Shown here: piece by piece, positions 4,572 to 52,355 of the stretch | How positions within the stretch are numbered: position 1 is the first letter of the stretch | How the letters are laid out: each line of letters begins with the position of its first letter | Made by a program: the position numbers and the translations under genes | Notes under the pieces: model-generated | Seen by the model: the letters and a program-made list of their open reading frames with translations, nothing else | The model's database searches: none | Told to the model about the DNA's origin: nothing | Virus record (IMG/VR): IMGVR_UViG_3300049460_000134 | Coordinates: 51,556-115,555 of that record | Reading direction: 5' to 3' (one strand) | Length of the DNA: 64,000 bases | DNA from: a virus

Positions 4572-4856
4572 ATGTCTGCCACCATTCTTGCATTCAAGCC
4601 GCGTTCTAAGCCAGAGCCGGAGTCCGTAAAGCAGCCGGCGCCTAACCAGCTCGAGATTTCAAAGTTTGAGTGCGATCACCTCGACCGCGTGATTGATCGC
4701 GCCGTCCATGTGCTTGACGTCATCCACTCTGGTCCGGCGCTCATCAAGCAGTTCCTCGCCGGCCAGCGCACGATCGCCTCCACCGTCAAGCACGGCGGCG
4801 TCGAATACGAGCTGCAGATCAGCCTCGTCGAAAAGCATTCCCCTCGCTTCGCATAA
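4572..4856 (+). CDS. Hypothetical protein
   Basis: AGGAG SD and ATG. Confidence 0.7.
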   Translation: MSATILAFKPRSKPEPESVKQPAPNQLEISKFECDHLDRVIDRAVHVLDVIHSGPALIKQFLAGQRTIASTVKHGGVEYELQISLVEKHSPRFA

Positions 4857-4868
4857 TAGGAGATTCCA

Positions 4869-5114
4869 TTGCGAAACTTTCTTTCTCGCCTTTTCCGCCG
4901 CAACCAGACGATCGTCACGAACGTCTCGGTCAATCACCAGGTCAACGTGATCCGTGATGACGCCGACTATATCGACGCGCTCGAAAACCGGATCGCCGAT
5001 CTCCTGGTCGCCAACACCGACTACGTGATGCGCCTTCAGGCTCGCGGCATTCGCGTCAAGGAGCTCGAGACGGAAAACGCCGAGCTGCGCGCACAGATCC
5101 CTGTTGCGGCATAA
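4869..5114 (+). CDS. Hypothetical coiled-coil protein
   Basis: AGGAG SD, TTG start. Confidence 0.65.
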   Translation: MRNFLSRLFRRNQTIVTNVSVNHQVNVIRDDADYIDALENRIADLLVANTDYVMRLQARGIRVKELETENAELRAQIPVAA

Positions 5115-5119
5115 CGCAC

Positions 5120-5326
5120 ATGGGGCTTTCGGCTAACGGGAAGCCTATAACGCCCTACCAAGGCTCGTGGGCATGGAAAATGGAGCAGCGCCGCAAGCTC
5201 GGCGCGCTTCGCGAGCAAGAAACCACCCTCTTCATCAATGGCAACAATCGCGAGGCTGCAGAGCGTCGCGACGAAGCCGCAGATCTCGAAAGGAGCTTAC
5301 ATGGCGGACAGACGCCTAACGACTGA
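5120..5326 (+). CDS. Hypothetical protein
   Basis: Operon packing. Confidence 0.5.
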   Translation: MGLSANGKPITPYQGSWAWKMEQRRKLGALREQETTLFINGNNREAAERRDEAADLERSLHGGQTPND

Positions 5327-5531
5327 AGACAGGCATACGCCGAAGTTGAAGCAGATCGCCGGTCTCATCCAGGGACTGACCTTCCGCGAAATGCAGCATA
5401 TCTCGGAATTGCTGAGGGATGAGCTGCAAGTGAGCGGCTCAATGCCTGTTACCGATGCGCTGCTAAAAGTTGCCGACAATCTTCTCGGCTTCGACACGCA
5501 GACCGGAATTCCCTTTCGTTCCGCTTCCTGA
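5301..5531 (+). CDS. Hypothetical protein
   Basis: AGGAG SD before ATG at 5301. Confidence 0.6.
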
Positions 5532-5550
5532 AACAATAAGGACACCTCCT

Positions 5551-6546
5551 TTGACCTTTCTCATCAATGACCCTGTGACGAAGATCACCGGCGACTACAG
5601 CTTCGACGGCACGGTCGTCGCAGCATTCGACAAGCAGGACGGCAAGCAACGCTACGTCGTCGAGGACGATCGCGGCGCGCTGCATATCTACAGCGAACAG
5701 AACCTCCGGCTGATCGGCAACATGGCTGATCACCAGTATCTGCGTGTCCTCAAGAAGCTGCTCGACAAGGGCGTCTATCGCGAAGGTCGCAACGGCGGCA
5801 CTTATGGTCTCTTCGGCGAACAGATGCGCTTCGACCTCTCTCGCGGCTTCCCGCTGCTGACGACCAAGAAGGTTCACTTCCACTCCATCGTCGTTGAATT
5901 GCTCTGGTTCCTCCGCGGCGAGACGAACATCAAGTTTCTGAAGGACCATAACGTCTCGATCTGGGATGAATGGGCTGACGAGAAGGGTGATCTTGGTCCG
6001 GTCTACGGCGCGCAGTGGCGCACCTGGCCGACGATCGAGCATCAGTGCGCCGATATCTACTATCCCGGCCACATCGACCAGATCCAGAAGGTGATCGACG
6101 GCCTCAAGCGCGATTCATACGGTCGCCGGCACATCGTCTCGGCATGGAATCCGGCTGAGATCGATGAAATGGCGCTTCCGCCCTGTCACTGCCTCTTCCA
6201 GTTCTTCGTGTCTGACAACAAGCTGAGCTGCCAACTCTACCAGAGGAGCGCAGATTGGTTTTTGGGGGTCCCATTCAACGTTGCCTCATACGCGCTGCTG
6301 ACCATGCTGATTGCGCGCGAAACCGGCCTTCAGCTTGGCGAATTCGTGCATAGCTTCGGCGATCTGCACCTCTACGCCAATCACATCGAGCAGGCCAAGG
6401 AGCAGCTCACTCGCGAGCCGCGCAAGTTGCCGAAGGTGCTCATCAATCCGGACATCGACAAGCACATCTTCGACCTGGAAGTCGGTGACGTCGCTCTCGT
6501 CAACTACGATCCCCATCCAGCGATCAAAGCGCCGGTCTCAGCGTAA
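5551..6546 (+). CDS. thyA: Thymidylate synthase with N-terminal DfrB/R67-like SH3 domain
   Basis: [27 protein letters not shown] and PFN motifs; probable TTG start at 5551 gives a ~57-aa N-terminal domain resembling R67 DHFR. Confidence 0.92.
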
Positions 6547-8020: not shown

Positions 8021-10357
8021 ATGGAAGTTTCGCAGCTTGCGCAGCTCGACACACACGCCGTCATCGGCGGTGAAGATCCTGAAGCGTTCGGCATGGCTGA
8101 TACTCCAGAATTCTATCAGATGCTCTCAGCCAGCATCTATCGCGACAAGATCCGCGCAGTCGTGCGCGAGACGATCTGCAATGGCTGGGACGCGCATATC
8201 ATGGGCGGCTGCACCGACAAGGCAGTGCAAGTTACACTCACGGACGAGGAGCTTGTCATCAAGGACTTCGGTCCCGGCATTCCGCATGAGAAGATGCGGC
8301 CGATCTATTGCATCTACGGCGTTTCGACGAAGGTGAAGGATGAGAGCCAGACCGGCGGTTTCGGTCTCGGATCCAAGTCGCCATTCGCCGTCACCGATCA
8401 CTTCTCCGTCGTCTCGTGCTTTGCAGGCACACGCTCTGTCTATGCCATCTCTCGCGGTGGCAAAGCTACAAGCGGCAAGCCTGACATGCGCCGCATGGTC
8501 GCCGTGCCGACAACCGAAAGCGGCGTCACTGTCACGGTCCCGATCAAAAAGGAAGAGCGCGAGAGCTTTGCCAAGCACATTCGCGCCGTTGCAAAGCAGG
8601 GCGGCATGCTGGTGACGCTGAACGGCGAACTTCTGGAGCGCTTCGATTACGAGGAGGCGCGCAAGACTGAGTTCTGCGTCGTCGCGCCTCACTGGATGCA
8701 CGAAAGCCGCATCTATACGCTCTACGGCACCGTCCTCTATCCGGTGATGACGACCGACCCTGATATCTCCAAGCTGACACGCGATATCGAAGGCCTGATC
8801 GGCTACGGCTCGACGCTGGTTATCGTTGCCCCGCCGAATTCAGTCGAAGTCACGCCGTCGCGCGAGTCCCTCTCTTTTACGGATGGAACCACCGACACCA
8901 TCAAGCGGCTGCTCGACAAGGCATGCACGCGCATCAGCAAGGCAATTCCGGCAGCTACTAAGCTCGCTGTCGATGCACGCGTTGCAAAGAACGGCCGCCT
9001 AGCGCTCGCGAGCAAGATCCACGCGATCAGAGAGGTGCCTGAGAAGGTTCTCTCCAGTGCGCTCGCGATCGCCGAGCACGCCGTCCGCTCGAATCCTGAT
9101 AACCATATCCAGTATGATCGACAGCGGCGCCTATGCCTTCAGGCAGCGCAGCGACTGTTCAAAGATGATCGCCGCACCTTCCGCCGTGCGCTGAAGCGTG
9201 GTTACAACGCTGGCGAGGACAGCTTCAAGGCGTCGAGCAAGCCGCTCATCCGCATTGCCTCGAAGATGGGCATGCTGAAGGATGCGCACCTCTTCAACAT
9301 CTACGCCTATCGCTACCAGACGATCGGCTCCAAGACCAATCCGCTGAAGGAGCACGACACCGGGGTCGTTAGGCCTGTCCTTTGCGTGGCGCGCAATCTG
9401 CGCGATCTGCGACCGACGATGAGCGGTGCAAGCAGCGGTTTTCCGCCGGACAAGGATAGCTTCATCGCCGGCCTGGTCATGCGCCAGTGGACTGCGGAGC
9501 GCCTGAAGCAGCTTCGCGCGCTCGCCGAGCACTACAAGCTGAAGCTGGTCATCTTCGATTACGAAGCAGCGAAGAAGCCGAAGAAAGCACCGGTCAAGCG
9601 CGAAAAGATCGTCGACAAGTATTTCGCCCTTGGTGATTTCAGGGGAACGACTTGCGAAACGGCAAACCTCGAAAATCCGAAATACTTCCTGATGAGCTTT
9701 GCGCGCGAAGGCATGCGTTCGCCCTTTCAGGATGAAGGCCATCAATACCACCACCTTCTTGCGAAGCGCTATCCGGAGACGGCTGTCATTTCGTCCAAGA
9801 CAGACGCTGAGAAGCTGATGAAGCGCGGCGCAGTCAATCTGACCGGTGTCATTGCCAAGCGCATTGCGGAGCTCGCTGGGGTCCGTGAGGTCCAATACGC
9901 TTACGCGATCCGCGAAGGCCTGATGTGCAACGGCAATTATCACCACTACCCATCAGACCTGGCCATTTCGTTCGCCAAGCTCGACATGCGGATTGCAAAG
10001 CGCCTGTTCCCCGACAAGGCGACGCCTGGCGCTCTCGCTGAAGAAGGCTTGCTTCTGAACGACGTGATGAACTCGCTGCGGCTCGATTATCAGGACCGCA
10101 ACTGCGGCGGCAATGAAGCCAAGCTCAAGATCTGGACGTCTGCGAGAGAGACCTACAAGGCCATGACCACGTCATATGCCGACCAGAAATTCAGTTACTT
10201 GAGCGTCCTGGCAGGCATCAGAGTTACCGGCGGCATCAAACGCAAGATCGATGATCTCCACGACATCATCGTCTTTTTGCAGGACCGCGAGAGTAAGTCA
10301 AAATTGACTGAATCCCTTTTGAACCCAATTGCTAACGCCCAGAAGGAGGCAGCATGA
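8021..10357 (+). CDS. rIIA: rIIA-like protein (GHKL ATPase N-terminus)
   Basis: RETICNGWDA, DFGPGI and GGFGLGSKSPFA motifs; adjacent to rIIB. Confidence 0.88.
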   Translation: MEVSQLAQLDTHAVIGGEDPEAFGMADTPEFYQMLSASIYRDKIRAVVRETICNGWDAHIMGGCTDKAVQVTLTDEELVIKDFGPGIPHEKMRPIYCIYGVSTKVKDESQTGGFGLGSKSPFAVTDHFSVVSCFAGTRSVYAISRGGKATSGKPDMRRMVAVPTTESGVTVTVPIKKEERESFAKHIRAVAKQGGMLVTLNGELLERFDYEEARKTEFCVVAPHWMHESRIYTLYGTVLYPVMTTDPDISKLTRDIEGLIGYGSTLVIVAPPNSVEVTPSRESLSFTDGTTDTIKRLLDKACTRISKAIPAATKLAVDARVAKNGRLALASKIHAIREVPEKVLSSALAIAEHAVRSNPDNHIQYDRQRRLCLQAAQRLFKDDRRTFRRALKRGYNAGEDSFKASSKPLIRIASKMGMLKDAHLFNIYAYRYQTIGSKTNPLKEHDTGVVRPVLCVARNLRDLRPTMSGASSGFPPDKDSFIAGLVMRQWTAERLKQLRALAEHYKLKLVIFDYEAAKKPKKAPVKREKIVDKYFALGDFRGTTCETANLENPKYFLMSFAREGMRSPFQDEGHQYHHLLAKRYPETAVISSKTDAEKLMKRGAVNLTGVIAKRIAELAGVREVQYAYAIREGLMCNGNYHHYPSDLAISFAKLDMRIAKRLFPDKATPGALAEEGLLLNDVMNSLRLDYQDRNCGGNEAKLKIWTSARETYKAMTTSYADQKFSYLSVLAGIRVTGGIKRKIDDLHDIIVFLQDRESKSKLTESLLNPIANAQKEAA

Positions 10358-15122: not shown

Positions 15123-15938
15123 ATGAAGAACGCACAAATGGCAGGAAACGTAGTCAACGGCGTGTCGGCAGAAAGCATCGATGATCTCCTCGAAGATCTC
15201 GACCTGGGCATCGAGCCGGCGCGTGGCGAAGAAATTGAAACGATCGTCGCCTCGGAAGAAGTGATCGAGGACGTCGATACGATCGTCGAGGAAGTTGTTG
15301 CCGCTGACGTCTCCGGCGACGACGATCTGTCCATCGACGAACTCGAAATGGGCATCGAGCGCGCTCAGGGCTACCAGGAGCAGGACGGCGGTGAGCAGCT
15401 CGCCGGCAATGCGACTGAGACCGTAGCTTCGAAGAAGGCAAACGCACCGAAGGCAGACTCGACTGTCAAGACAGTGAAAGCGCCGCGTGCATCTACGCCG
15501 CGTCAGCCGCGCGACGTGTCTGCGATCGCCGCTGAAGTCTTCGTCCTCGAAGGCGACGCCTCGCAGATGTCGGCTGACGAACTCGAAAGCAACAAGAAGG
15601 CGGTGATCGACGCTGCGCCGACGCAGAAGAAGATCGCCGAGAAATACGAAAACCTCTTCATGTCGCTCTCGGTCGGCAAGCAGCCTTCGACCTACGTCGT
15701 CCAGGCGTTCAAGTTCCTGGACCAGAAGAAGACGCTGTCCTCGACGGATATCGTCGCGATGCTTAAGGGCTCCTACAAGCAGGGCACTGCTCAGAGCCAG
15801 GCCGGTCAGATCATGAAGCTCTTCGAGGCGACGAAGATCGCGACGCGGACCAAGAACTCGCTGGAGCTGAACGACAACTCGGTCATCGCCGGCAAGCTGC
15901 GCGACATTCTCAACAACGCGAACAAAGCCGCCGCGTAA
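15123..15938 (+). CDS. Acidic N-terminus plus probable winged-helix C-terminal domain; paralog of 36111 and 38916 products
   Basis: C-terminal GTAQSQAGQIMKLF...LELNDNS aligns with ATASTQASSNMRIL...YELTDT. Confidence 0.7.
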   Translation: MKNAQMAGNVVNGVSAESIDDLLEDLDLGIEPARGEEIETIVASEEVIEDVDTIVEEVVAADVSGDDDLSIDELEMGIERAQGYQEQDGGEQLAGNATETVASKKANAPKADSTVKTVKAPRASTPRQPRDVSAIAAEVFVLEGDASQMSADELESNKKAVIDAAPTQKKIAEKYENLFMSLSVGKQPSTYVVQAFKFLDQKKTLSSTDIVAMLKGSYKQGTAQSQAGQIMKLFEATKIATRTKNSLELNDNSVIAGKLRDILNNANKAAA

Positions 15939-35813: not shown

Positions 35814-35879
35814 CCGCGGCATGCCACCTTAAGCCGGAGTGATCCTAGGATGACCGAGGCGTGCCTTGGAAATCCTCGG
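35814..35879. repeat. 10-bp-phased CC/CCNNGG array
   Basis: CC at 35814, 35824, 35834, 35844, 35854, 35864 and 35874; five of these are CCNNGG. Confidence 0.75.
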
Positions 35880-36110: not shown

Positions 36111-36791
36111 ATGCAGTCCACGTCCAACCAGGCACCGGCCACGTCCAAGAAGATAGAGGCCTACGACTTCAAGCAGGCGGCACAGAGCCATACATCTGAC
36201 GAGTTGGCGGCGTTTGCCTTGCGTGTCGAGCAGGCGTTCACCGCAAGAGCGCAGTTCGAGCTCGACCAGACGAGCAACGCCGACGAGCCGATCCAGAAGA
36301 AGCTCGCCACCGCACGCAAGTCCTTCTCTATGCCGGACACACTGCGCGGCATGATCGAACTCAACCTCGATCCGGAGTTCATCAACGGCACGCTCTCCAA
36401 AGACGGCAAAGGCAAGCGCCTGAACGTCTATGCCATCAAGAAGGCGCAGCAGATCGTGGACTTCATGCTCGGCAAGGACAAGCTGCCGGAGGTGCTGATC
36501 GCCTGCCTCAAGTCGATGGTGGCATTCAAGGCGGCCGGCGAGAAGTTCACGGCAGAGTTTTCCAAGGCTGCAGTCTCAGACAAGATCAGGCTCGCGCCAT
36601 CTGCCGGCCTTAAGCTCCTTGTCAGGCACAACGTCGATAAGGCTACCGCCTCGACGCAGGCAAGTAGTAATATGCGCATTCTGCAGGCTCTTGGTCTGGT
36701 GAAGAACGTAGGCAGTGCACGCTCCGGTGTGTATGAGCTGACGGATACAAAGCAGGCGGTAGCGCTTGTGGATCTTCTGAGGTCAGCCTAG
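36111..36791 (+). CDS. Hypothetical DNA-binding-like protein; paralog of 38916 and 15123 products
   Basis: GAGGAG SD; block-wise similarity to the 38916 product. Confidence 0.8.
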   Translation: MQSTSNQAPATSKKIEAYDFKQAAQSHTSDELAAFALRVEQAFTARAQFELDQTSNADEPIQKKLATARKSFSMPDTLRGMIELNLDPEFINGTLSKDGKGKRLNVYAIKKAQQIVDFMLGKDKLPEVLIACLKSMVAFKAAGEKFTAEFSKAAVSDKIRLAPSAGLKLLVRHNVDKATASTQASSNMRILQALGLVKNVGSARSGVYELTDTKQAVALVDLLRSA

Positions 36792-36824
36792 GCCTCGCCG
36801 GCTAGGCGAAACTGCAGAGGGGAA

Positions 36825-36860
36825 GAGGCGGTAGGCACCCAAACCTACCGCCTCGCTTTG
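36825..36860 (+). terminator. Intrinsic terminator
   Basis: GAGGCGGTAGG..CCTACCGCCTC followed by a T-rich run. Confidence 0.65.
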
Positions 36861-36985
36861 TTTTGGCTATAGAGAGACCAAGGATATCCGTGGCAGCGGC
36901 CATTAGGAACCGGTGGGGTCCAAGGGACCGGCCGCTAGAAACCACGCATGTCCGCTCCAGGTGTAGGGGAAGGATTGGGTTGATG

Positions 36986-37032
36986 CCGCGGCGATCCTAG
37001 GCGATCCGTGGCAGGCCGCGGCAAACCTTGGC
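36986..37032. repeat. 10-bp-phased CCNNGGC array
   Basis: CCGCGG, CCTAGG, CCGTGG, CCGCGG and CCTTGG at 36986, 36996, 37006, 37016 and 37026. Confidence 0.8.
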
Positions 37033-37152
37033 TGAGGCATCGCCTCCCCTCTCCTATCCGTGCCTCGCCGGAGTGATCCAGAGATTGCCGATTGCATGCC
37101 TCTCTCTATCATCGTATCAGTAATTATTGACTGACAAACACAAGAGAGACAC

Positions 37153-37485
37153 ATGAAGATCATTACTGAAGCCGAACTGACGAGCGCTATCGAAGACTGC
37201 CTGTGCGAAGTGTTTGAGCTCGTCGTAGGCCAGCGCGCATATCTCGAAGTGCTCACGAATGAGACGGACTACGTCGGCACGCTCATCGAGTATGAGACGG
37301 ACCTTGGCTTTCACAACGCGACAAACGTCTTCGATCTGGACCTAGAGACGCGCAAGTATGCCTTTGAGCGCGCAGTGACTGCCGGCGATGCGAAACAGTC
37401 GTTCTTTGCATATGACAGCCTATCTGATGCGAAAGCACACGCCACGGCGCTGCTATTCGCAAAGCTCGACGGCTACGAAGAATAG
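37153..37485 (+). CDS. Hypothetical acidic early protein
   Basis: Own promoter and operator; GAGAG SD. Confidence 0.7.
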   Translation: MKIITEAELTSAIEDCLCEVFELVVGQRAYLEVLTNETDYVGTLIEYETDLGFHNATNVFDLDLETRKYAFERAVTAGDAKQSFFAYDSLSDAKAHATALLFAKLDGYEE

Positions 37486-37727
37486 GCCATAGCGAGCGTC
37501 GCTGACCGCGGCGCTTTCATTTGGCTTGTCGAGTGCCGTGGCGATCCTTGGAACCCGCCGAGGGGCAGTCCACGCCACACCAGGCCGGTCCAGTCCTCAT
37601 CCGGCCAGGCCAGGTCCACGGCACGTCAGGCCGCCTCACCCTGCAAGACCCCTGCAATGCCGATTTGATCGCCTTTAGCGACTTCGCTAAAACAATAATT
37701 AGCGAAACACGAAAGAGAGACACGCGC

Positions 37728-38051
37728 ATGACCAACGAACTCGTAAAGACCGCCGCCATTGCTCTGCTCAATCATCTGTCCACGATGAACGATGATGCCT
37801 TTGAGCGCGTCGATACCGACTACATCGACTATTCGCCTGACGCGCACTTCACAGTCGCCTTGTTCGACGCGATCGAGCCAGCCAAAGACCGCAACTACTT
37901 CGACATGATTACCGAGTTCACCTACGAGCTCGCCAGTGTCACCAAGAGCGATGACGATCGTGCCGACGTCGATCGCTTCTGCACCAAGCTCTTCTCCGCC
38001 CTCCTCCGTTTCGAAATGAGCGAGAACATCCAGAGTCTCGACGCCTCATAG
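37728..38051 (+). CDS. Hypothetical acidic early protein
   Basis: GAGAG SD, ATG at 37728. Confidence 0.7.
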   Translation: MTNELVKTAAIALLNHLSTMNDDAFERVDTDYIDYSPDAHFTVALFDAIEPAKDRNYFDMITEFTYELASVTKSDDDRADVDRFCTKLFSALLRFEMSENIQSLDAS

Positions 38052-38127
38052 CGCCGACAACATCCATTTGAACGCCTTTAGCGAATTCGCTAAATATTTA
38101 AGTGTCAACAACGTGAGAGCGAGACAC

Positions 38128-38298
38128 ATGCAAACGATCATTCCAGCGCCGACCGTCAGATACCACATAAAAGAAATGACGCCGCGCCAGTCGAACTTCG
38201 CAAGCCAAGCCCTGTCGCTTGCCAAGGAGACTGCCGCCTTCATTGCCTTTATCGTCTTCGTCTGTGCTGTCATCGCCGTGTGCGTGATAATCCACTAA
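38128..38298 (+). CDS. Small protein with C-terminal TM helix
   Basis: ATG at 38128 after a promoter. Confidence 0.55.
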   Translation: MQTIIPAPTVRYHIKEMTPRQSNFASQALSLAKETAAFIAFIVFVCAVIAVCVIIH

Positions 38299-38304
38299 GT
38301 CGAG

Positions 38305-38346
38305 AGCCAGGTCCGGACACCGCCATGTCACCGGACCTGGCTTTTT
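38305..38346 (+). terminator. Intrinsic terminator
   Basis: AGCCAGGTCCGG...CCGGACCTGGCTTTTT. Confidence 0.7.
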
Positions 38347-38467
38347 CATTGCCTGAAACCATGGCATGCCACGGTTGCCAAAATCAGGAACCGAGGCTAT
38401 TCGTGCCAAGGGGATCCAGTCCGGCGAGTCCCGCTGGCGATGCCTGTCAATATATGAGCGCTCGCTA

Positions 38468-38527
38468 CATCGCTCGACGCTTCATTAGTCGATGCTACAT
38501 TACGCGCTGCTGCATTAGTCGACGCTT
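38468..38527. repeat. Four imperfect 15-bp tandem repeats (CATTAGTCGACGCTT-like)
   Basis: Units at 38468, 38483, 38498 and 38513. Confidence 0.7.
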
Positions 38528-38621
38528 CGAAAGCGCACGCTCTCACACCTCTTGCTCAATTAGCGCATGCTCACAGACACGCGCTCGCGAGCCTGTCCGT
38601 TTCCGCACCAAAAACAAAGAA

Positions 38622-38648
38622 AAGCACACGCTTGTTTAGCGTGTGCTT
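38622..38648 (-). terminator. Terminator of the minus-strand island operon
   Basis: AAGCACACGCT-TGTTT-AGCGTGTGCTT; U-rich tract on the minus strand. Confidence 0.7.
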
Positions 38649-38666
38649 GTATCTGCTTTTGCTGTT

Positions 38667-38846
38667 TTATTCAGCGCTCATGCGCTCGCGTTCTGTGGTG
38701 CGCACATAGTCGCGCATGTCGAAATACTCGCTTTCATAGTCGCGCTCTAACAGCGCAACGTCTGAGGTGTTAGCAAACGACATGCTAAGCGCTTGTCTGA
38801 AGTTGTCGCGCTCGCGACGCTCTTTCTTTGTCATGTGTATGCGCAT
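38667..38846 (-). CDS. 59-aa protein lacking Gly/Pro/Trp (not in ORF track)
   Basis: MRIHMTKKERRERDNFRQALSMSFANTSDVALLERDYESEYFDMRDYVRTTERERMSAE; GAGAG SD. Confidence 0.65.
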   Translation of the reverse strand: MRIHMTKKERRERDNFRQALSMSFANTSDVALLERDYESEYFDMRDYVRTTERERMSAE

Positions 38847-38915
38847 TATCTAAATCTCTCGTTGGTGTTTCGTGTGAGTGTCAGTCAATTAAGACTGACA
38901 CTCGTTTCTGTGGTG

Positions 38916-39500
38916 TTACGCGCTCAGCTTCGCTTCAATGAGCGCAAAGATTGCGTTGTTGTTGACTGCATATTCAGTCTTGTTTTTCTGCTCAATCAGA
39001 TTGAGCGCATGCAGTGCGCGCATGCTCATGTTTGCATGTCGTGCATAGTTCGCGAATTGCGTGCGACGCTGATAGATGAGCGCTTTTTTGGTGTCGTCGA
39101 TTTTCGCGCTCGCGTTCAAGCTGTCTTCAATGTCGCGCACAGTGAAGTTTACATTAGCGTTCTTGAAGTTAACAAGCGTGCGCAACACTTCTTCGAGATT
39201 GCTCTTGAGGTGTTTTACATCGTCGCGCGTTGCGAACTTGAGCAAGCTATCAACACTGTTGATTGCTTTCATGCACATATACTTATTTTCGACGCGCTTG
39301 TCGTGCGAAAACACCTCAGAAACGTTGCTCTTCTTGAGCAACGCAGCAACGCTTTTCTGCGATACTGTGAGCGTTACATCAGTGATGAACTTGAGCGATG
39401 CAGCGCATGCACCATTTTTCAGTTCATCGTCATAGCGCTTGTTCAAATCTGCAGCGTATGCGTTGATCTTGACTTCGTTGTTCTTCGTTACTTCAGTCAT
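38916..39500 (-). CDS. Paralog of the 36111 product, depleted of GG/CC codons
   Basis: 194 aa with 1 Gly, 0 Pro and 0 Trp; flanked by operators at 38879 and 39584. Confidence 0.8.
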   Translation of the reverse strand: MTEVTKNNEVKINAYAADLNKRYDDELKNGACAASLKFITDVTLTVSQKSVAALLKKSNVSEVFSHDKRVENKYMCMKAINSVDSLLKFATRDDVKHLKSNLEEVLRTLVNFKNANVNFTVRDIEDSLNASAKIDDTKKALIYQRRTQFANYARHANMSMRALHALNLIEQKNKTEYAVNNNAIFALIEAKLSA

Positions 39501-40057
39501 TTGCTTGTCTTTCTTTCGTTGTGCTGTTTAATCAGCGTTGTTAACATGTTCACTAAACACTTATTCGCAAAAACAGTCAAGCGTATCAGTCAAAAATAAC
39601 TGACATTTTGCGAAAATAATTCGATGCACTCTATTTGACACATAGACGCGCACTGACGCGCGTTGTGTGTCGTGCGCTGTCATCTATCGTTTTTGTGCGT
39701 CGCTGCATCCCTCGTGCAACGTCGTGACAATGCGCGCGTGATTGATTCTCTAGTGTCGCGTGACAGTGTTGCTAGCGTGAGTTTTCGAGGTGAAAGCGAA
39801 GTCTTAGAAAAAAGTGCGTCGCTCGAAAGGGATGCCTCCTGCTGCGCCGACACTTCCCGGCTCGGACTACCTGTCCTCATTCCCGGCCTGGACGGACAGC
39901 ATAGGTGCGGTATGCCGAGGCCCCTCCCCTGCTCTCCCCTCTACCAGACCGCCCAGATTCCCGGATCCCGGACTACCTATCCTTATGTGTCAGTAACTAT
40001 TGACTGACATTCGACGCGCGGCTACAGTCGCCTCATCATCAACGCAGGATCTCTCCT

Positions 40058-40987
40058 ATGGAAATCACTAACTCCGGCAACCTCCAGGTCAGAACGCACG
40101 AGAACGGCGTTCAGGAATTCCTCGAGGCCCCGCTCAGCATGTCGCTGTTCAACGACTTTGAGGACCGGCTGCTGACACGCCACACGGACGGCCGCTACGT
40201 CTTCAGGGACGATCGCGGCAACGTGCTGATCTACATGAGCACTGGCCTCTCCGCGCTCGACGGCTTCCAGCGCGTCGGTCTGGAGCTCAAGAGCTACTAC
40301 GACGTGGAGCGCAACCTCTACCAGACCGCCTTCCCTCCCCTCTCCCTGACGATGAGCGACGTTCTCGTGCCGAACAGGCTTCTCCAGGAGCTGACATTCG
40401 TTCCGACCGAGGAGCCGTTCGTCTACAAGCGCACTGCTGGTCCGTTTGGCTTCCCTGTGCTCGATCTCTTCGGTCAGCTTGCCGACAGCATTCCCCTCGA
40501 GGACGCCGTAACAGCAGCCCCTGGCTATCTCAGCGGCGAGCCGACCGAACAGGAGCCTGTCACCGCCGGCTCGCTCTCGAATGCGGACGGCAGCTTCAAG
40601 ATTGACCTGGACGAAGGCGCGATCGAAATTAGCGAAAGCCAGAATTCGCTAACTCGCGTTTCCGTTCACTATGACGATCGCCGCGACCTGGTCTTCGTCG
40701 GCTATGACGTCTTGGATCACATCGACGACGACGGCGGCGCCCTGGCGCTCGAGATCGATGGCAAGGCGATCGTGCCGGCCTTTGGCTGGACGCACTACAC
40801 CTTCGAGGCGCTCGACAATCCGCTTGTGGACGAAGAGGCGCCGCTTGCTTCTGTCGCGAAAGAGCGAATTAGCGATCCGATCTGCGAAGGACCGGTCTTT
40901 CCGGATGGCAGCTTCACCAAGGATCAGATCGAAGAGGCTTTCCGCTTCCTCGTCGCCGACAAGCTCACCGATCGCAAGGCAGCCTGA
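40058..40987 (+). CDS. Hypothetical acidic protein
   Basis: 309-aa ORF after an operator. Confidence 0.7.
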   Translation: MEITNSGNLQVRTHENGVQEFLEAPLSMSLFNDFEDRLLTRHTDGRYVFRDDRGNVLIYMSTGLSALDGFQRVGLELKSYYDVERNLYQTAFPPLSLTMSDVLVPNRLLQELTFVPTEEPFVYKRTAGPFGFPVLDLFGQLADSIPLEDAVTAAPGYLSGEPTEQEPVTAGSLSNADGSFKIDLDEGAIEISESQNSLTRVSVHYDDRRDLVFVGYDVLDHIDDDGGALALEIDGKAIVPAFGWTHYTFEALDNPLVDEEAPLASVAKERISDPICEGPVFPDGSFTKDQIEEAFRFLVADKLTDRKAA

Positions 40988-42500: not shown

Positions 42501-42684
42501 GGTCGCTAATTCCCGTTTGAACGATTTCGCTAAATCGTTACTTAGCGGATTCGGGTTAACGAGACACTACCAAATTTGAAGGGAGAGGTTGGCGCAGCCC
42601 ATTTGTGTCAACAACGAAACAACAAACGAGAGAGACCGGGATCTCAAACGAGAGATTTCTAGGGCTGCGCCGGGGTATTTAGTT

Positions 42685-44122: not shown

Positions 44123-44207
44123 AGAAAAGCTCCTGCGTTTGTCAGTCAATATTTACTGACACTACAACAGGAGCTGATTTAGCGGAAGCACGAATTAGCG
44201 AATTCGC

Positions 44208-44390
44208 TTAAGCAGGATCGATTTCCTCAATGAAACCGGCCTGTTTGGCCTTGCGCACGAGCTTGGAAAGCTTGGCGTTGTCCTTCAATAGCTCGTCGAT
44301 CGAGTCCAGCAGGAACTTTTCCGTGACAGCGGCAAGACCGGTTGTGTTGAAGAAGTGGATCGGGTCCACAAGGCGACGTTCTGCGGTCAT
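44208..44390 (-). CDS. Hypothetical protein
   Basis: ATGA overlap with the helicase stop. Confidence 0.55.
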   Translation of the reverse strand: MTAERRLVDPIHFFNTTGLAAVTEKFLLDSIDELLKDNAKLSKLVRKAKQAGFIEEIDPA

Positions 44391-46077: not shown

Positions 46078-46836
46078 ATGACAGAAGTGGAGCCCCTGAA
46101 GGGCTATCCGAAATACGGGGAAGCGGATCCATCCACGCTGCAGCCGAATCCCTGGAATACAAACATCATGACGCCGGAGAACGAGCAGAAGCTTGAGGCG
46201 TCTATGAAGCGCTTCGGCATCTTCCGTCCGGTTGTCGTTCGCGAAATCGTTAATTCGCGAAATGGCGACAAAACTTTGCAGATCTTGGGTGGTCAACACC
46301 GCAACGAGATCGCGCAGCGGCAGGGGAGGGGAGTGGTCCCGATCGTCAATCTGGGGCCAATCGATGAGGAGAAGGCCAAGGAGATCGGTATCGCCGACAA
46401 CGCACGATACGGCGTCGATGATGCCATCGCGTTCGGCGAACTCATCAAAAGCCTCGCTCATGCCGACCAACTCGCTGACTTCCTTCCCTACACCCAAAAT
46501 GAATTCGACAGTTTCGTCACGTCGTCTGAAATAGACTTGGATTCATTGGATTTCGAAGAAAACTTCGAAAAAAGCGAGGAGAACGACACTTCTCCGCAGC
46601 CTGAGACTGAGAAGCCTGCCAAGACGCATACGATCCTGCGTTTCAAGTGCTCCAACCGCGACGCCGAAGACATCACCGCCAGAATCGAGGCTGTGAAACA
46701 GGCGCAGGGCTTCATCGGCTCCGACGATCTCACCAATGCCGGCGACGCGCTGGCTCACCTCCTTCTGCATGCCGTTAGTGGTCAGTCAAATTTGACTGAT
46801 GATCTCGAAGACATCGACGCCGGAGACGACGAATGA
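46078..46836 (+). CDS. ParB/Srx-N domain protein 1
   Basis: PNPWNTN, PVVVR, ILGGQHR and ADN motifs. Confidence 0.85.
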   Translation: MTEVEPLKGYPKYGEADPSTLQPNPWNTNIMTPENEQKLEASMKRFGIFRPVVVREIVNSRNGDKTLQILGGQHRNEIAQRQGRGVVPIVNLGPIDEEKAKEIGIADNARYGVDDAIAFGELIKSLAHADQLADFLPYTQNEFDSFVTSSEIDLDSLDFEENFEKSEENDTSPQPETEKPAKTHTILRFKCSNRDAEDITARIEAVKQAQGFIGSDDLTNAGDALAHLLLHAVSGQSNLTDDLEDIDAGDDE

Positions 46837-47015
46837 ACGTCCGGCCGAAGTTCGACGACTGCACAGGCTGCAAATACTTCCTGAAGAACCGCCGCAACCC
46901 GATCTGCGGCGAGTGTGACGCCGGCGAGTTCTTCGAAACCAAAACCAGAGTCCGGGAGAAGAGCCCGGATGAACTCATGAAGCTTTACGGGGAACTTTCC
47001 GACCATGACGAATAG
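46833..47015 (+). CDS. Small Cys-rich protein
   Basis: CTGC...CGEC. Confidence 0.6.
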   Translation: MNVRPKFDDCTGCKYFLKNRRNPICGECDAGEFFETKTRVREKSPDELMKLYGELSDHDE

Positions 47016-47676
47016 CCTAGCCGTCCAGATCCTCGATCTGGCTTCTCTCATCCCACACGCCAAGAACGCCAAGAAGCATTCCGACGAGCAGGTTGCCAAT
47101 ATCGCAGCCCTCATCAAGCGCCTTGGCTGGACGAGCCCGATCGTTGTCGACAAGGATCTGGTCATCATCGCCGGTCACGGCCGCCGCCTGGCCGCCCTGC
47201 ACCTCGGGATGACGAAGGTTCCGGTCATCGTTCGTGACGATCTCAGCAAGGAAGAGGCTGAAGCGCTTCGCCTGGCTGACAACCGCGTCGCATCGACCGA
47301 CTACGACTTGGCGCTGGAGCAGGAAGCTCTGCAGGCGCTCGCCGAATTCAACCTCGATCTCGACTTCTCGGTCATGGGCTACACCGAGCGCGAGCTCGAT
47401 TTCATGACCAACGACCTCGGCGCGATGGATGAGAGCCTCTTCGTCGAGGATATCTCCGAAGCCGTCCAGGGTCAGAAGGAAGACAACGAGAAGAAGGTCG
47501 AGGAGGTCGATGATATCGCAGCTCCGGTCGCCGACGCTCTTGGCTTCAAGCGCGTGACGATCGCCGAAAGCCGCGTCCTGCGCGATCTCATGGGTCGAAT
47601 GGAGCAGGCAACCGGCCTGCAGGGCGCTCCGGCGCTCATCGGCTTCATCCAGTCGAGCCTGGATCGCGCTGCATGA
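47005..47676 (+). CDS. ParB/Srx-N domain protein 2
   Basis: NAKKH, PIVVD, IIAGHGRRLAA and LADNR motifs. Confidence 0.88.
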   Translation: MTNSLAVQILDLASLIPHAKNAKKHSDEQVANIAALIKRLGWTSPIVVDKDLVIIAGHGRRLAALHLGMTKVPVIVRDDLSKEEAEALRLADNRVASTDYDLALEQEALQALAEFNLDLDFSVMGYTERELDFMTNDLGAMDESLFVEDISEAVQGQKEDNEKKVEEVDDIAAPVADALGFKRVTIAESRVLRDLMGRMEQATGLQGAPALIGFIQSSLDRAA

Positions 47677-48086
47677 CCGATGTGATCGACATCAAGACTC
47701 GTCGCCCCTGGGCTTTGGCACGCGCTGAAGCCCAGAAGGCCAGGCGCAAGGCCAAGCGCCAGGAGAAGAAGGAAGCCAAGGAAGGCATCGAGGAGCACAA
47801 GGCAGCCATGCTCGAGGTGCTCGATGGCGTGCGCAAACTCGTCGAGGCAGGCCGTCTGGAAGGGCTGCTGCTGATCGCACGCGAGCCGAAGACCAAGCAC
47901 TTCTTCACCGAAGTCGTCCTTGATGACCGCATCATCACGAACAATGACCTCCACTCGTTCGTCGGCTGCCTGGAAACCCTGAAGATCGAGCTGGCTGACG
48001 GCGCGGCAATGGCGCCGGCGCTGATGCTCGATGGCTCAACCATTGATCCGGAAATGGAGCCGCCGGAATACGAGGAATTCGAATGA
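47673..48086 (+). CDS. Hypothetical protein
   Basis: ATGA coupling. Confidence 0.7.
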   Translation: MTDVIDIKTRRPWALARAEAQKARRKAKRQEKKEAKEGIEEHKAAMLEVLDGVRKLVEAGRLEGLLLIAREPKTKHFFTEVVLDDRIITNNDLHSFVGCLETLKIELADGAAMAPALMLDGSTIDPEMEPPEYEEFE

Positions 48087-48727
48087 CCGTCTATACGATC
48101 AACAAATCCTTCACCTCATCGGTGGAGCGCACGGATCGCGTGCTTGAAATGGCTGAGAGCTTCGGCCTGGGACTGACCGACAAAGAGTTCACGATCTACA
48201 AGGATCTGGAGCTCAACGTTCCGCAAGGCTCGATCGTCTACATCAACGGCCAATCTGGCTCCGGCAAGTCGCTGCTCCTGCGCGAGCTGTCGGCCGCCAT
48301 GCGCGCCGGTGGTCTCAAGGTCGCCGACCTGAACGAGATTGAGCTGCCCGAAAAGCCGGTGATCGAGATTGTCGGCAAATCCACGAGCGAAGCGCTGCAC
48401 CTCCTGGCGCTCGCCGGTATCTCTGACGCCTGGATCTATATCCGCAAGCCGTCGGAGCTCTCTGACGGGCAGCGCTACCGCCTGAAGCTCGCAGTCCTCC
48501 TTGAGCAAGACGCCGATGTATGGGTTGCCGACGAGTTCGGCGCCGTTCTCGATCGCGTCTGCGCCAAGGTGATTTCTTTCAATCTCCAGAAGGTCGCTCG
48601 CCAGCACGGCAAAACATTCATGGTTGCCACCACGCACACCGATCTCGTCGATGAACTTGGTCCGGATCTGTCGATCTACAAGGAATTCAAGGAGCGCGTG
48701 CTGGTCAAAGAGAAGGCCGCGGCATGA
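48083..48727 (+). CDS. Soluble ABC-type ATPase (no permease)
   Basis: GQSGSGKS, LSDGQ, VADEF and TTH motifs. Confidence 0.9.
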   Translation: MTVYTINKSFTSSVERTDRVLEMAESFGLGLTDKEFTIYKDLELNVPQGSIVYINGQSGSGKSLLLRELSAAMRAGGLKVADLNEIELPEKPVIEIVGKSTSEALHLLALAGISDAWIYIRKPSELSDGQRYRLKLAVLLEQDADVWVADEFGAVLDRVCAKVISFNLQKVARQHGKTFMVATTHTDLVDELGPDLSIYKEFKERVLVKEKAAA

Positions 48728-50297: not shown

Positions 50298-50344
50298 TTG
50301 AAGCTACGTGCCATAATGTCAGTAAATACTGATTGACAAATTGA

Positions 50345-52296: not shown

Positions 52297-52355
52297 GGTT
52301 GCGTGTCAGTAAAAACTGACTTACAATTTCTGTTGACTGACACGAAGGCCTCATT

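Follow-up and report, generated by a model that had tools for sequence, protein, structure and literature searches.

A GG/CC-poor island in a Rhizobium-type phage-plasmid encodes a divergent paralog nearly devoid of glycine, proline and tryptophan

The locus and its two paralogs

Within a window of 64,000 nucleotides (bases 51556-115555 of the single 115,555-bp contig of IMG/VR record IMGVR_UViG_3300049460_000134), we analyzed two convergent genes, referred to as A and B, which encode divergent versions of one predicted DNA-binding protein and of which B lies in a short island nearly devoid of the dinucleotides GG and CC (Table 1). An earlier note drawn up from the letters of this DNA had singled out both open reading frames (ORFs), and both are present where it placed them. 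GG and CC together occur at 118 per kb across the 115.5-kb genome, and no other 500-bp stretch of it comes near the low of the island, which also differs in GC content (47% versus 58% for the genome). Most of the GG and CC that remain in the island (11 of 16) belong to the word GGTG or its complement CACC. In the 1180-bp core of the island this word is found at 6.8 per kb, compared to 8.0 per kb genome-wide, whereas all other GGNN contexts combined occur only twice. Since GGTG/CACC is kept near its genomic rate while the other GGNN words are almost gone, the banned word is best described as GG unless TG follows, and GGTG is exempt from the ban in this lineage.

The island is a self-contained minus-strand transcription unit composed of a promoter, two genes and a terminator. 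Its candidate promoter is of host type, with the -35 and -10 elements and spacer listed in Table 1 conserved in an alignment of relatives, and this conservation is the only pointer to what may be early or lysogenic expression of B, which the earlier note had proposed as a possible immediate-early regulator acting before the rest of the genome is readable. Stretches of purines that avoid GG, for instance GAAAGAAAGA and GAGAGA, form the ribosome-binding sites of the island region, and the purge of GG and CC extends approximately 240 bp upstream of the predicted promoter and 170 bp past the terminator.

Table 1. Position of the two paralogs, the island unit and other features of the window, numbered from its first base
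Feature	Position	Strand	Description
Ordinary copy A	36111..36791	+	226 aa; normal composition (10 Gly, 6 Pro); canonical GAGGAG ribosome-binding site
GG/CC-poor island	38444..39828	.	16 GG/CC in 1385 bp versus ~164 expected
Island copy B	38916..39500	-	194 aa; two-domain, predicted C-terminal winged helix; ORF with orthologs in 15 relatives and Chelativorans
Second island-unit gene	38667..38846	-	59 aa; no family match; syntenic small gene annotated in relatives
Intrinsic terminator of island unit	38622..38648	-	
Candidate promoter of island unit	39552..39605	-	-35 TTGACT (39580-39575), 17-nt spacer, -10 TTTAGT (39557-39552); predicted from sequence
22-bp palindrome copy	39584-39605		precedes candidate island promoter
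GG-free coding-strand zone	37631..38225	+	0 GG on + strand, CC normal; two small genes convergent with B
Candidate DNA-marking module	46078-48727		two ParB_N proteins and a 214-aa ABC-type ATPase (phrog_11143, E 3e-23), directly upstream of terS/packaging genes
Third protein	15123..15938	+	44 homologs; weak similarity to the A family confined to the last ~53 residues (recognition helix and wing)
Open antisense frame over B	38793-39599	+	268 aa
Motif TTCTAAGACTTCGC	39796-39809	-	
Tandem units (GCTNCATTAGTCGAY-like)	38464-38538		four units of 15 bp
22-bp palindrome, example sites	37115-37136, 38879-38900, 39584-39605, 39988-40009, 50317-50338, 52304-52325		
16-bp palindrome TTAGCGAnTTCGCTAA	37675-37690, 38078-38093, 44195-44210		weaker copies at 42518 and 49014
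CCNNGG arrays	35850-35879, 36996-37035, 37540-37565		3-4 sites, 10-bp period
18-bp direct repeat CGGACTACCTRTCCTYAT	39863-39880, 39969-39986		

The contig that carries the locus begins and ends with an identical 127 bases, indicating a circular assembly. Its large terminase (TerL) is approximately 70% identical to those of Rhizobium phages RHEph10, RHph_N1_10, RHph_N1_15, RHph_N2_6 and RHph_Y2_11, 64% identical to those of B1VFA, V1VFA-S and RHph_X66, and 56% identical to those of T5-like phages of E. coli and Pseudomonas. ParA, ParB-like proteins, RepC, a sigma factor, rIIA/B, two DNA ligases and a protein annotated as T5 A1 are among the annotated products of these relatives, in which no DNA methyltransferase, base-modification gene or deaminase is annotated. 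B1VFA and V1VFA-S are siphophages with phage-plasmid features, and the ends of B1VFA are fixed and bear 3.6-kb direct terminal repeats (PMC12509600). In addition, another protein of the window has homologs on 116-119 kb contigs in Rhizobium and Mesorhizobium genome assemblies, which fits carriage as a plasmid. Judged from its sequence, the host element is a Rhizobium-type phage-plasmid that keeps two ancient copies of one predicted DNA-binding protein.

The relationship between A and B is not visible to standard searches. BLASTP produced no alignment between them, and a hidden Markov model (HMM) of the A family, when run against all ORFs of the genome, matched A and did not pick up B, so that profile-profile methods are required to link the two. 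A direct Smith-Waterman alignment scored 60, a value reached by 0 of 500 shuffles (34.8 +/- 5.3). With hhalign, 13 B-type sequences matched 11 A-type sequences at a probability of 96.7% (E 3.7e-10, 178 columns), and the B family matched a 156-sequence A profile at 98.1% (E 1.2e-13, 177 columns). The hhalign alignment takes in the two blocks that the earlier note had quoted in claiming B as a paralog of A, a claim that these comparisons bear out.

With 277 clusters at 50% identity (E <= 1e-3), the A family is a large one, yet it is uncharacterized and has no Pfam model. Neither A nor B has a significant match in Pfam or PHROGs, the MarR, ArsR (HTH_5) and HxlR families of Pfam give no match above the gathering score for A, B or 54 A-family members, and a sequence search of solved structures returned no relative of the A family. 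An invariant signature, TAxTQxSS and then L..LG, marks its recognition helix. In the window clade of B this place reads ARHANMSMRALHALN, the B1VFA-type B proteins are closer to the signature (AAQSQTS..AL..LN), and the signature glycine is replaced by asparagine in 12 of 13 B-family sequences. Because B lacks the A signature despite its full-length profile match, it is a divergent sister group and not an ordinary member of the A family. A quick maximum-likelihood tree placed the B sequences in one group (88 in the Shimodaira-Hasegawa-like approximate likelihood ratio test, SH-aLRT), with sub-branches that mirror those of A and branches several times longer, a topology that fits a single ancient duplication after which B changed rapidly. 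Both genes were found in every element examined and the synteny of the pair is conserved in all 16, and by these sequence comparisons the duplication is older than the split of RHEph10-like, B1VFA-like and Chelativorans elements.

AlphaFold (AF2) models of B (predicted local distance difference test, pLDDT, 89.8; predicted template modeling score, pTM, 0.85) and of A (pLDDT 78.4, pTM 0.76) present their helices and strands in like order. In the B model, helices 100-114, 121-128 and 152-165 form a three-helix bundle that is followed by a beta-hairpin wing (strands 169-171 and 177-179). We searched the C-terminal halves of A and B independently against 48,161 solved chains, and the best match for both was 2qvo_A, with Z 8.4 for B (VIA; root-mean-square deviation (rmsd) 3.2, 80 aligned) and Z 10.3 for A (rmsd 3.3, 83 aligned). 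Winged helices of ArsR, MarR, MukF, JetB and ORC came next in both lists; in that of B, the entries for ArsR, MarR, Fur, MukF and ORC score Z 7-8. These matches support a C-terminal winged helix in both models, the fold that the earlier note had named; Z values of this size are common among winged helices and back the predicted fold, not a function. As in the regulators ArsR/SmtB, MarR and AF1382 (2qvo), the predicted C-terminal half consists of three helices and a beta-hairpin wing, but unlike them A and B match no Pfam winged-helix family in sequence. The N-terminal half of A/B found no match of its own. At full length, Foldseek ranked chains of MukE, a tandem winged-helix protein of the KITE type like ScpB and JetB, first, with weak scores (E 0.1-0.5, template modeling score 0.3); JetABC chains matched at Z 7.2-7.8 over the C-terminal half only. 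No chain of StbA (IncW plasmid R388, stbDR) was present among the sequence matches or the listed fold matches; arrays of phased repeats are found near the genes.

Several minor features touch B and the island. An open antisense frame of 268 aa covers B in the window, and the RHEph10 record (L004, JX483881.1, 99105-99785, gp148) assigns the island gene to the opposite, wrong strand, which looks like an annotation trap arising from the odd composition of B. The motif TTCTAAGACTTCGC, located at the upstream edge of the island, shows no variation among all seven aligned relatives and may mark the functional boundary. Four tandem 15-bp units lie within the island beyond the terminator of the B unit.

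A dinucleotide ban and its cost in protein

Under a ban on GG and CC, glycine (GGN), proline (CCN) and tryptophan (TGG) cannot be encoded, and the B protein has been rewritten as a result. Our codon count agrees with that of the earlier note: in 194 residues B has one glycine, encoded by GGT with G as the next base, and neither proline nor tryptophan. The three residues together make up 0-1.5% of B-type proteins compared to 4-12% (mean 8.3%) of 150 A-family representatives, and none of the 150 is free of them, an equal lack among ordinary relatives being what the earlier note had named as evidence against its idea. We then mapped the four best conserved glycine columns of the A family onto 13 B-family sequences. 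Asparagine occupies column G101 in 10 of 13 and column G195 in 12 of 13, G143 is filled by Asn, Lys, Ser, Gln or Asp, and G201 by Asn, Ser or His. Most of the conserved glycines have thus given way to asparagine, as the earlier note had suggested, and in B the asparagines in their place are residues 72, 116, 167 and 173. Conserved prolines are replaced by Ala, Thr, Glu, Lys or Asp. Those lone glycines that do occur in the B proteins of P0004, RHEph10 and P0005 sit exactly on G101, G143 and G195, and in RHEph10 the codon context is again GGTG. Asparagine shares with glycine a tolerance for the left-handed backbone conformation found in tight turns, and the fold is preserved in the models despite the rewriting. 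The A/B pair can be viewed as a natural experiment in which one fold is encoded with 20 versus effectively 17 amino acids, and it reveals the residues used in place of glycine and proline, with asparagine at conserved turn positions.

Codon junctions place the ban on the nucleotides. In B, only 1 of 63 codons preceding a codon that starts with G ends in G itself, compared to 29 of 80 in A, although 52 of its 194 codons end in G overall. The codons GCC, TCC, CGG and AGG are not used at all. When B is compared to its nearest relative (locus L007), 114 of 585 nucleotides differ, corresponding to 50 synonymous and 31 non-synonymous codon differences, and each copy has exactly four GG/CC, all of them GGTG/CACC. 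Placing the same 114 substitutions at random sites gave 35 +/- 4.8 GG/CC with a minimum of 20 in 2000 trials. The ban is maintained by continuing selection on nucleotides. Together, the junctions, the synonymous sites, the non-coding flanks, the substitution simulation and the persistence of the ban at 25% protein identity indicate that it is nucleotides that are banned and not amino acids, and the assertion of the earlier note that a constraint on DNA overrides the protein sequence stands for a nucleotide constraint in either DNA or RNA.

The relatives examined comprise 15 loci (six GenBank phages and nine IMG/VR contigs) and, in addition, one Chelativorans composti contig. They were recovered only via protein search, as megablast of the island against the phage collection gave no match; a related-locus search with a narrower alignment yielded two genome loci. 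Islands of 0.7-1.3 kb with 0-5 GG/CC occupy the same syntenic place in all 15 loci, down to 25% identity in B, and several relatives have no GG or CC across more than 1.1 kb. The Chelativorans contig (L020, NZ_BAABGS010000017.1, 4761-5681 and 8485-9045) has the same convergent A/B pair and a GG/CC-free island, and its B ortholog, matched by hhalign at 99.6%, contains one glycine, no proline and no tryptophan. The trait therefore reaches beyond Rhizobium phages. The long retention of a dinucleotide ban, over a host range that extends from Rhizobium to Chelativorans, implies that a strong agent acts on GG/CC. Full-text searches on GG-dinucleotide depletion in phages and on dinucleotide avoidance in phage-plasmids turned up no account of such a ban. 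As RHEph10, the RHph phages and B1VFA are cultured, the ban is directly testable by recoding.

Candidate explanations for the ban

In the reading that we prefer, and to which we assign a probability of roughly 55%, A and B stem from an old duplication and the B unit, encoding a putative regulator, is kept free of GG and CC by selection on nucleotides, thereby escaping a factor that reads these dinucleotides. This factor would act on the DNA of the element and could be a host defense, for which T5 offers a precedent in that defenses are effective there only at sites in the DNA that enters first (PMC10644984), or a DNA-marking module of the phage itself, of the ParB-ABC ATPase type and beside the packaging genes, for which the window holds a candidate (Table 1). 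The island unit alone would have to escape it, and a version of the A-type regulator could then be produced while ordinary genes bearing GG/CC are marked, cut or silent; B would most likely serve as a DNA-binding regulator of the surrounding cluster of small promoters. More generally, these phage-plasmids or their hosts may possess an undescribed enzyme or binding protein that reads a word of two to four letters (here GG, not GGTG) on essentially all DNA in the cell, a proposal that we make tentatively and consider rather doubtful. Were it true, A and B would represent a natural, evolution-tested rebuild of a fold without glycine, proline and tryptophan.

Escape of motif-free genes from sequence-specific nucleases has precedents in ACA-less mRNAs and MazF and in the avoidance of restriction sites and protospacer-adjacent motifs (PAMs) by phages. 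The likeness lies in selection that removes a short word from a gene, which allows its product to form during an attack on other nucleic acids. Known words, however, are 3-8 nt long and can be removed synonymously, whereas a 2-nt word on both strands cannot, and for this reason the protein alphabet itself shrinks. We also considered base-modification pathways (deazaguanine, hydroxymethyl, glycosyl) and rejected them, as no such genes are annotated in the relatives; Rhizobium phage RL38J1, with its glycosylated 5-hydroxycytosine, belongs to another family (PMC13326640).

Several points weigh against the reading that we prefer. We identified no reader of GG/CC in this work, no GNAT/acyltransferase domain was detected beside the ABC ATPase, and the annotations of the relatives contain neither a methyltransferase nor a base-modification gene. 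DNA binding and a regulatory role of B are predicted from its modeled fold, at Z values that many winged helices reach, and the odd composition that the B sequences share may have helped them to group in the tree. The contig is a circular assembly, the records of B1VFA and V1VFA-S start at different points and the 3.6-kb repeat of B1VFA is not located in its record, so that the island may lie anywhere relative to the ends of the virion DNA. Finally, GG and CC are not avoided symmetrically in the zone next to the island, and this strand asymmetry suits a reading of RNA or of the template strand at least as well as a reader of duplex DNA.

Reading of the transcript or template strand is the first of two alternatives that we consider unlikely yet worth serious attention. 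It would require the mRNAs of the island unit and of the neighboring small genes to be GG-free, with the loss of CC from the mRNA being secondary, and it could stem from a GG-specific endoribonuclease, from a translation state in which Shine-Dalgarno-like runs of GG are not tolerated, or from a block of the polymerase at marked CC in the template. In keeping with this idea, the two small genes that converge on B, both with a promoter carrying the palindrome TTAGCGAnTTCGCTAA, lack GG on their coding strand and have CC at normal levels, and a weaker form of this coding-strand bias is found downstream of B in most relatives. In the B1VFA-like locus L014 (IMGVR_UViG_3300046692_000351; B ortholog at ~5001-5600), the coding strand of B has 10 CC and 0 GG, and the protein is still without glycine, proline and tryptophan. 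That CC has been regained there while GG is still absent indicates that the two halves of the ban are separable, and from the strand asymmetry the stricter half of the rule is the absence of GG from the sense strand, i.e. of CC from the template. The GG-free ribosome-binding sites point in the same direction. Nonetheless, both strands are purged in the window and in 14 of 15 relatives, and the purge reaches ~240 bp upstream of the predicted promoter and 170 bp past the terminator, where mRNA of the unit should not exist. No GG-specific nuclease was found here, and we know of no nuclease with this specificity.

The second alternative, to which we likewise give only a modest chance, holds that the island is first-exposed or unprotected DNA, like that of T5 first-step transfer, and has been stripped of targets of defenses such as GC-rich restriction sites and CC/NGG PAMs. 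Restriction-modification, CRISPR and Ssp defenses act on T5 and BF23 only at sites in the first-entering DNA (PMC10644984). The first-step-transfer DNA of these phages resembles the island in being a short stretch of a ~115-120-kb siphophage genome without defense targets, the rest of the genome being exempt (PMC10644984). Related packaging genes (56% identity in TerL), the A1 homolog in relatives and the fixed ends with 3.6-kb direct terminal repeats of B1VFA (PMC12509600) add to this likeness. However, the ~10-kb terminal repeat of T5 holds A1/A2 and avoids specific sites of 4-8 bp (PMC10644984), whereas here 1.4 kb is affected and the ban covers a whole dinucleotide, which costs the protein three amino acids. 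Apart from B, the island contains the 59-aa gene alone, with no A1/A2, and the A1 homolog lies ~40 kb away; in RHph_Y2_11, the gene annotated 'A1 protein' occupies 52.0-53.9 kb, compared to 10.8-11.4 kb for the island gene. The island may lie at any distance from the DNA ends, it is rich in GCGC and CGCG, which are common restriction sites themselves, and a total dinucleotide ban with a clean exemption for GGTG resembles the work of a single reader, not of many defenses.

We regard as very improbable that there is no selection on the word at all and that local, context-specific mutation pressure, for instance deamination of CC on exposed single strands, erodes GG/CC in a protein that tolerates the change. 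The lower GC content of the island (47% versus 58%) and the nature of the glycine-to-asparagine exchange (GGY to AAY, two G-to-A transitions) are as expected from such pressure, but the edges of the island are sharp and at the same syntenic place in lineages that share only 25% protein identity, GGTG persists at the genomic rate, B is under purifying selection and confidently folded in its model, and no deaminase is annotated in the relatives. Least credible of all, to the point that we all but dismiss it, is a resemblance of A and B that is a by-product of odd composition or a convergence of unrelated winged-helix proteins, since the missing BLASTP alignment and the failure of the A-family HMM to find B are outweighed by an hhalign match (E 1e-13) that spans almost all of both proteins and not the winged helix only, a matching order of secondary structure, synteny of the pair in all 16 elements, and retained B glycines on glycine columns of the A family.

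Palindromes, repeats and a third protein

A 22-bp palindrome (TRTCAGT-N8-ACTGAYA, consensus TGTCAGTAA..TTGACTGACA) that includes a -35-like TTGACT hexamer occurs in 29 copies in the 64 kb of the window compared to 0.27 expected, mostly a short way upstream of genes, whether early or late. It may serve a genome-wide repressor as operator or the phage as promoter element. The former would follow the logic of phage P1, in which operators of the C1 repressor are scattered over the phage-plasmid genome: by analogy, the element studied here is a phage-plasmid with ParA, ParB and RepC, and its palindrome is found at 29 places including the B promoter. The comparison differs in that no binder is assigned to the palindrome, which might just as well be a promoter element used by the phage sigma factor.

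The 16-bp palindrome TTAGCGAnTTCGCTAA is located in the -35/-10 spacer of the two small-gene promoters and near parA; considered as a candidate operator for B, it is absent from the promoter of B itself in the window. Relatives carry direct half-sites TTAGCGATTTAGCGAAATAGCTA at the B promoter that the window does not have. The promoters of A and of the two units that come next are preceded by arrays of CCNNGG, which are probably docking tracks for a DNA-binding protein.

The earlier note had also seen a more distant similarity in the C-terminus of a third protein of the window. Its family matches the A family weakly in hhalign (probability 35%, E 4e-4, 53 columns) and has no hhalign match to the B family.

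The spacer between the island and the operon at 40058 is very rich in CC and contains both copies of the 18-bp direct repeat CGGACTACCTRTCCTYAT; the same spacer in relatives is filled with dense CCCCTAGGGG-like repeats.

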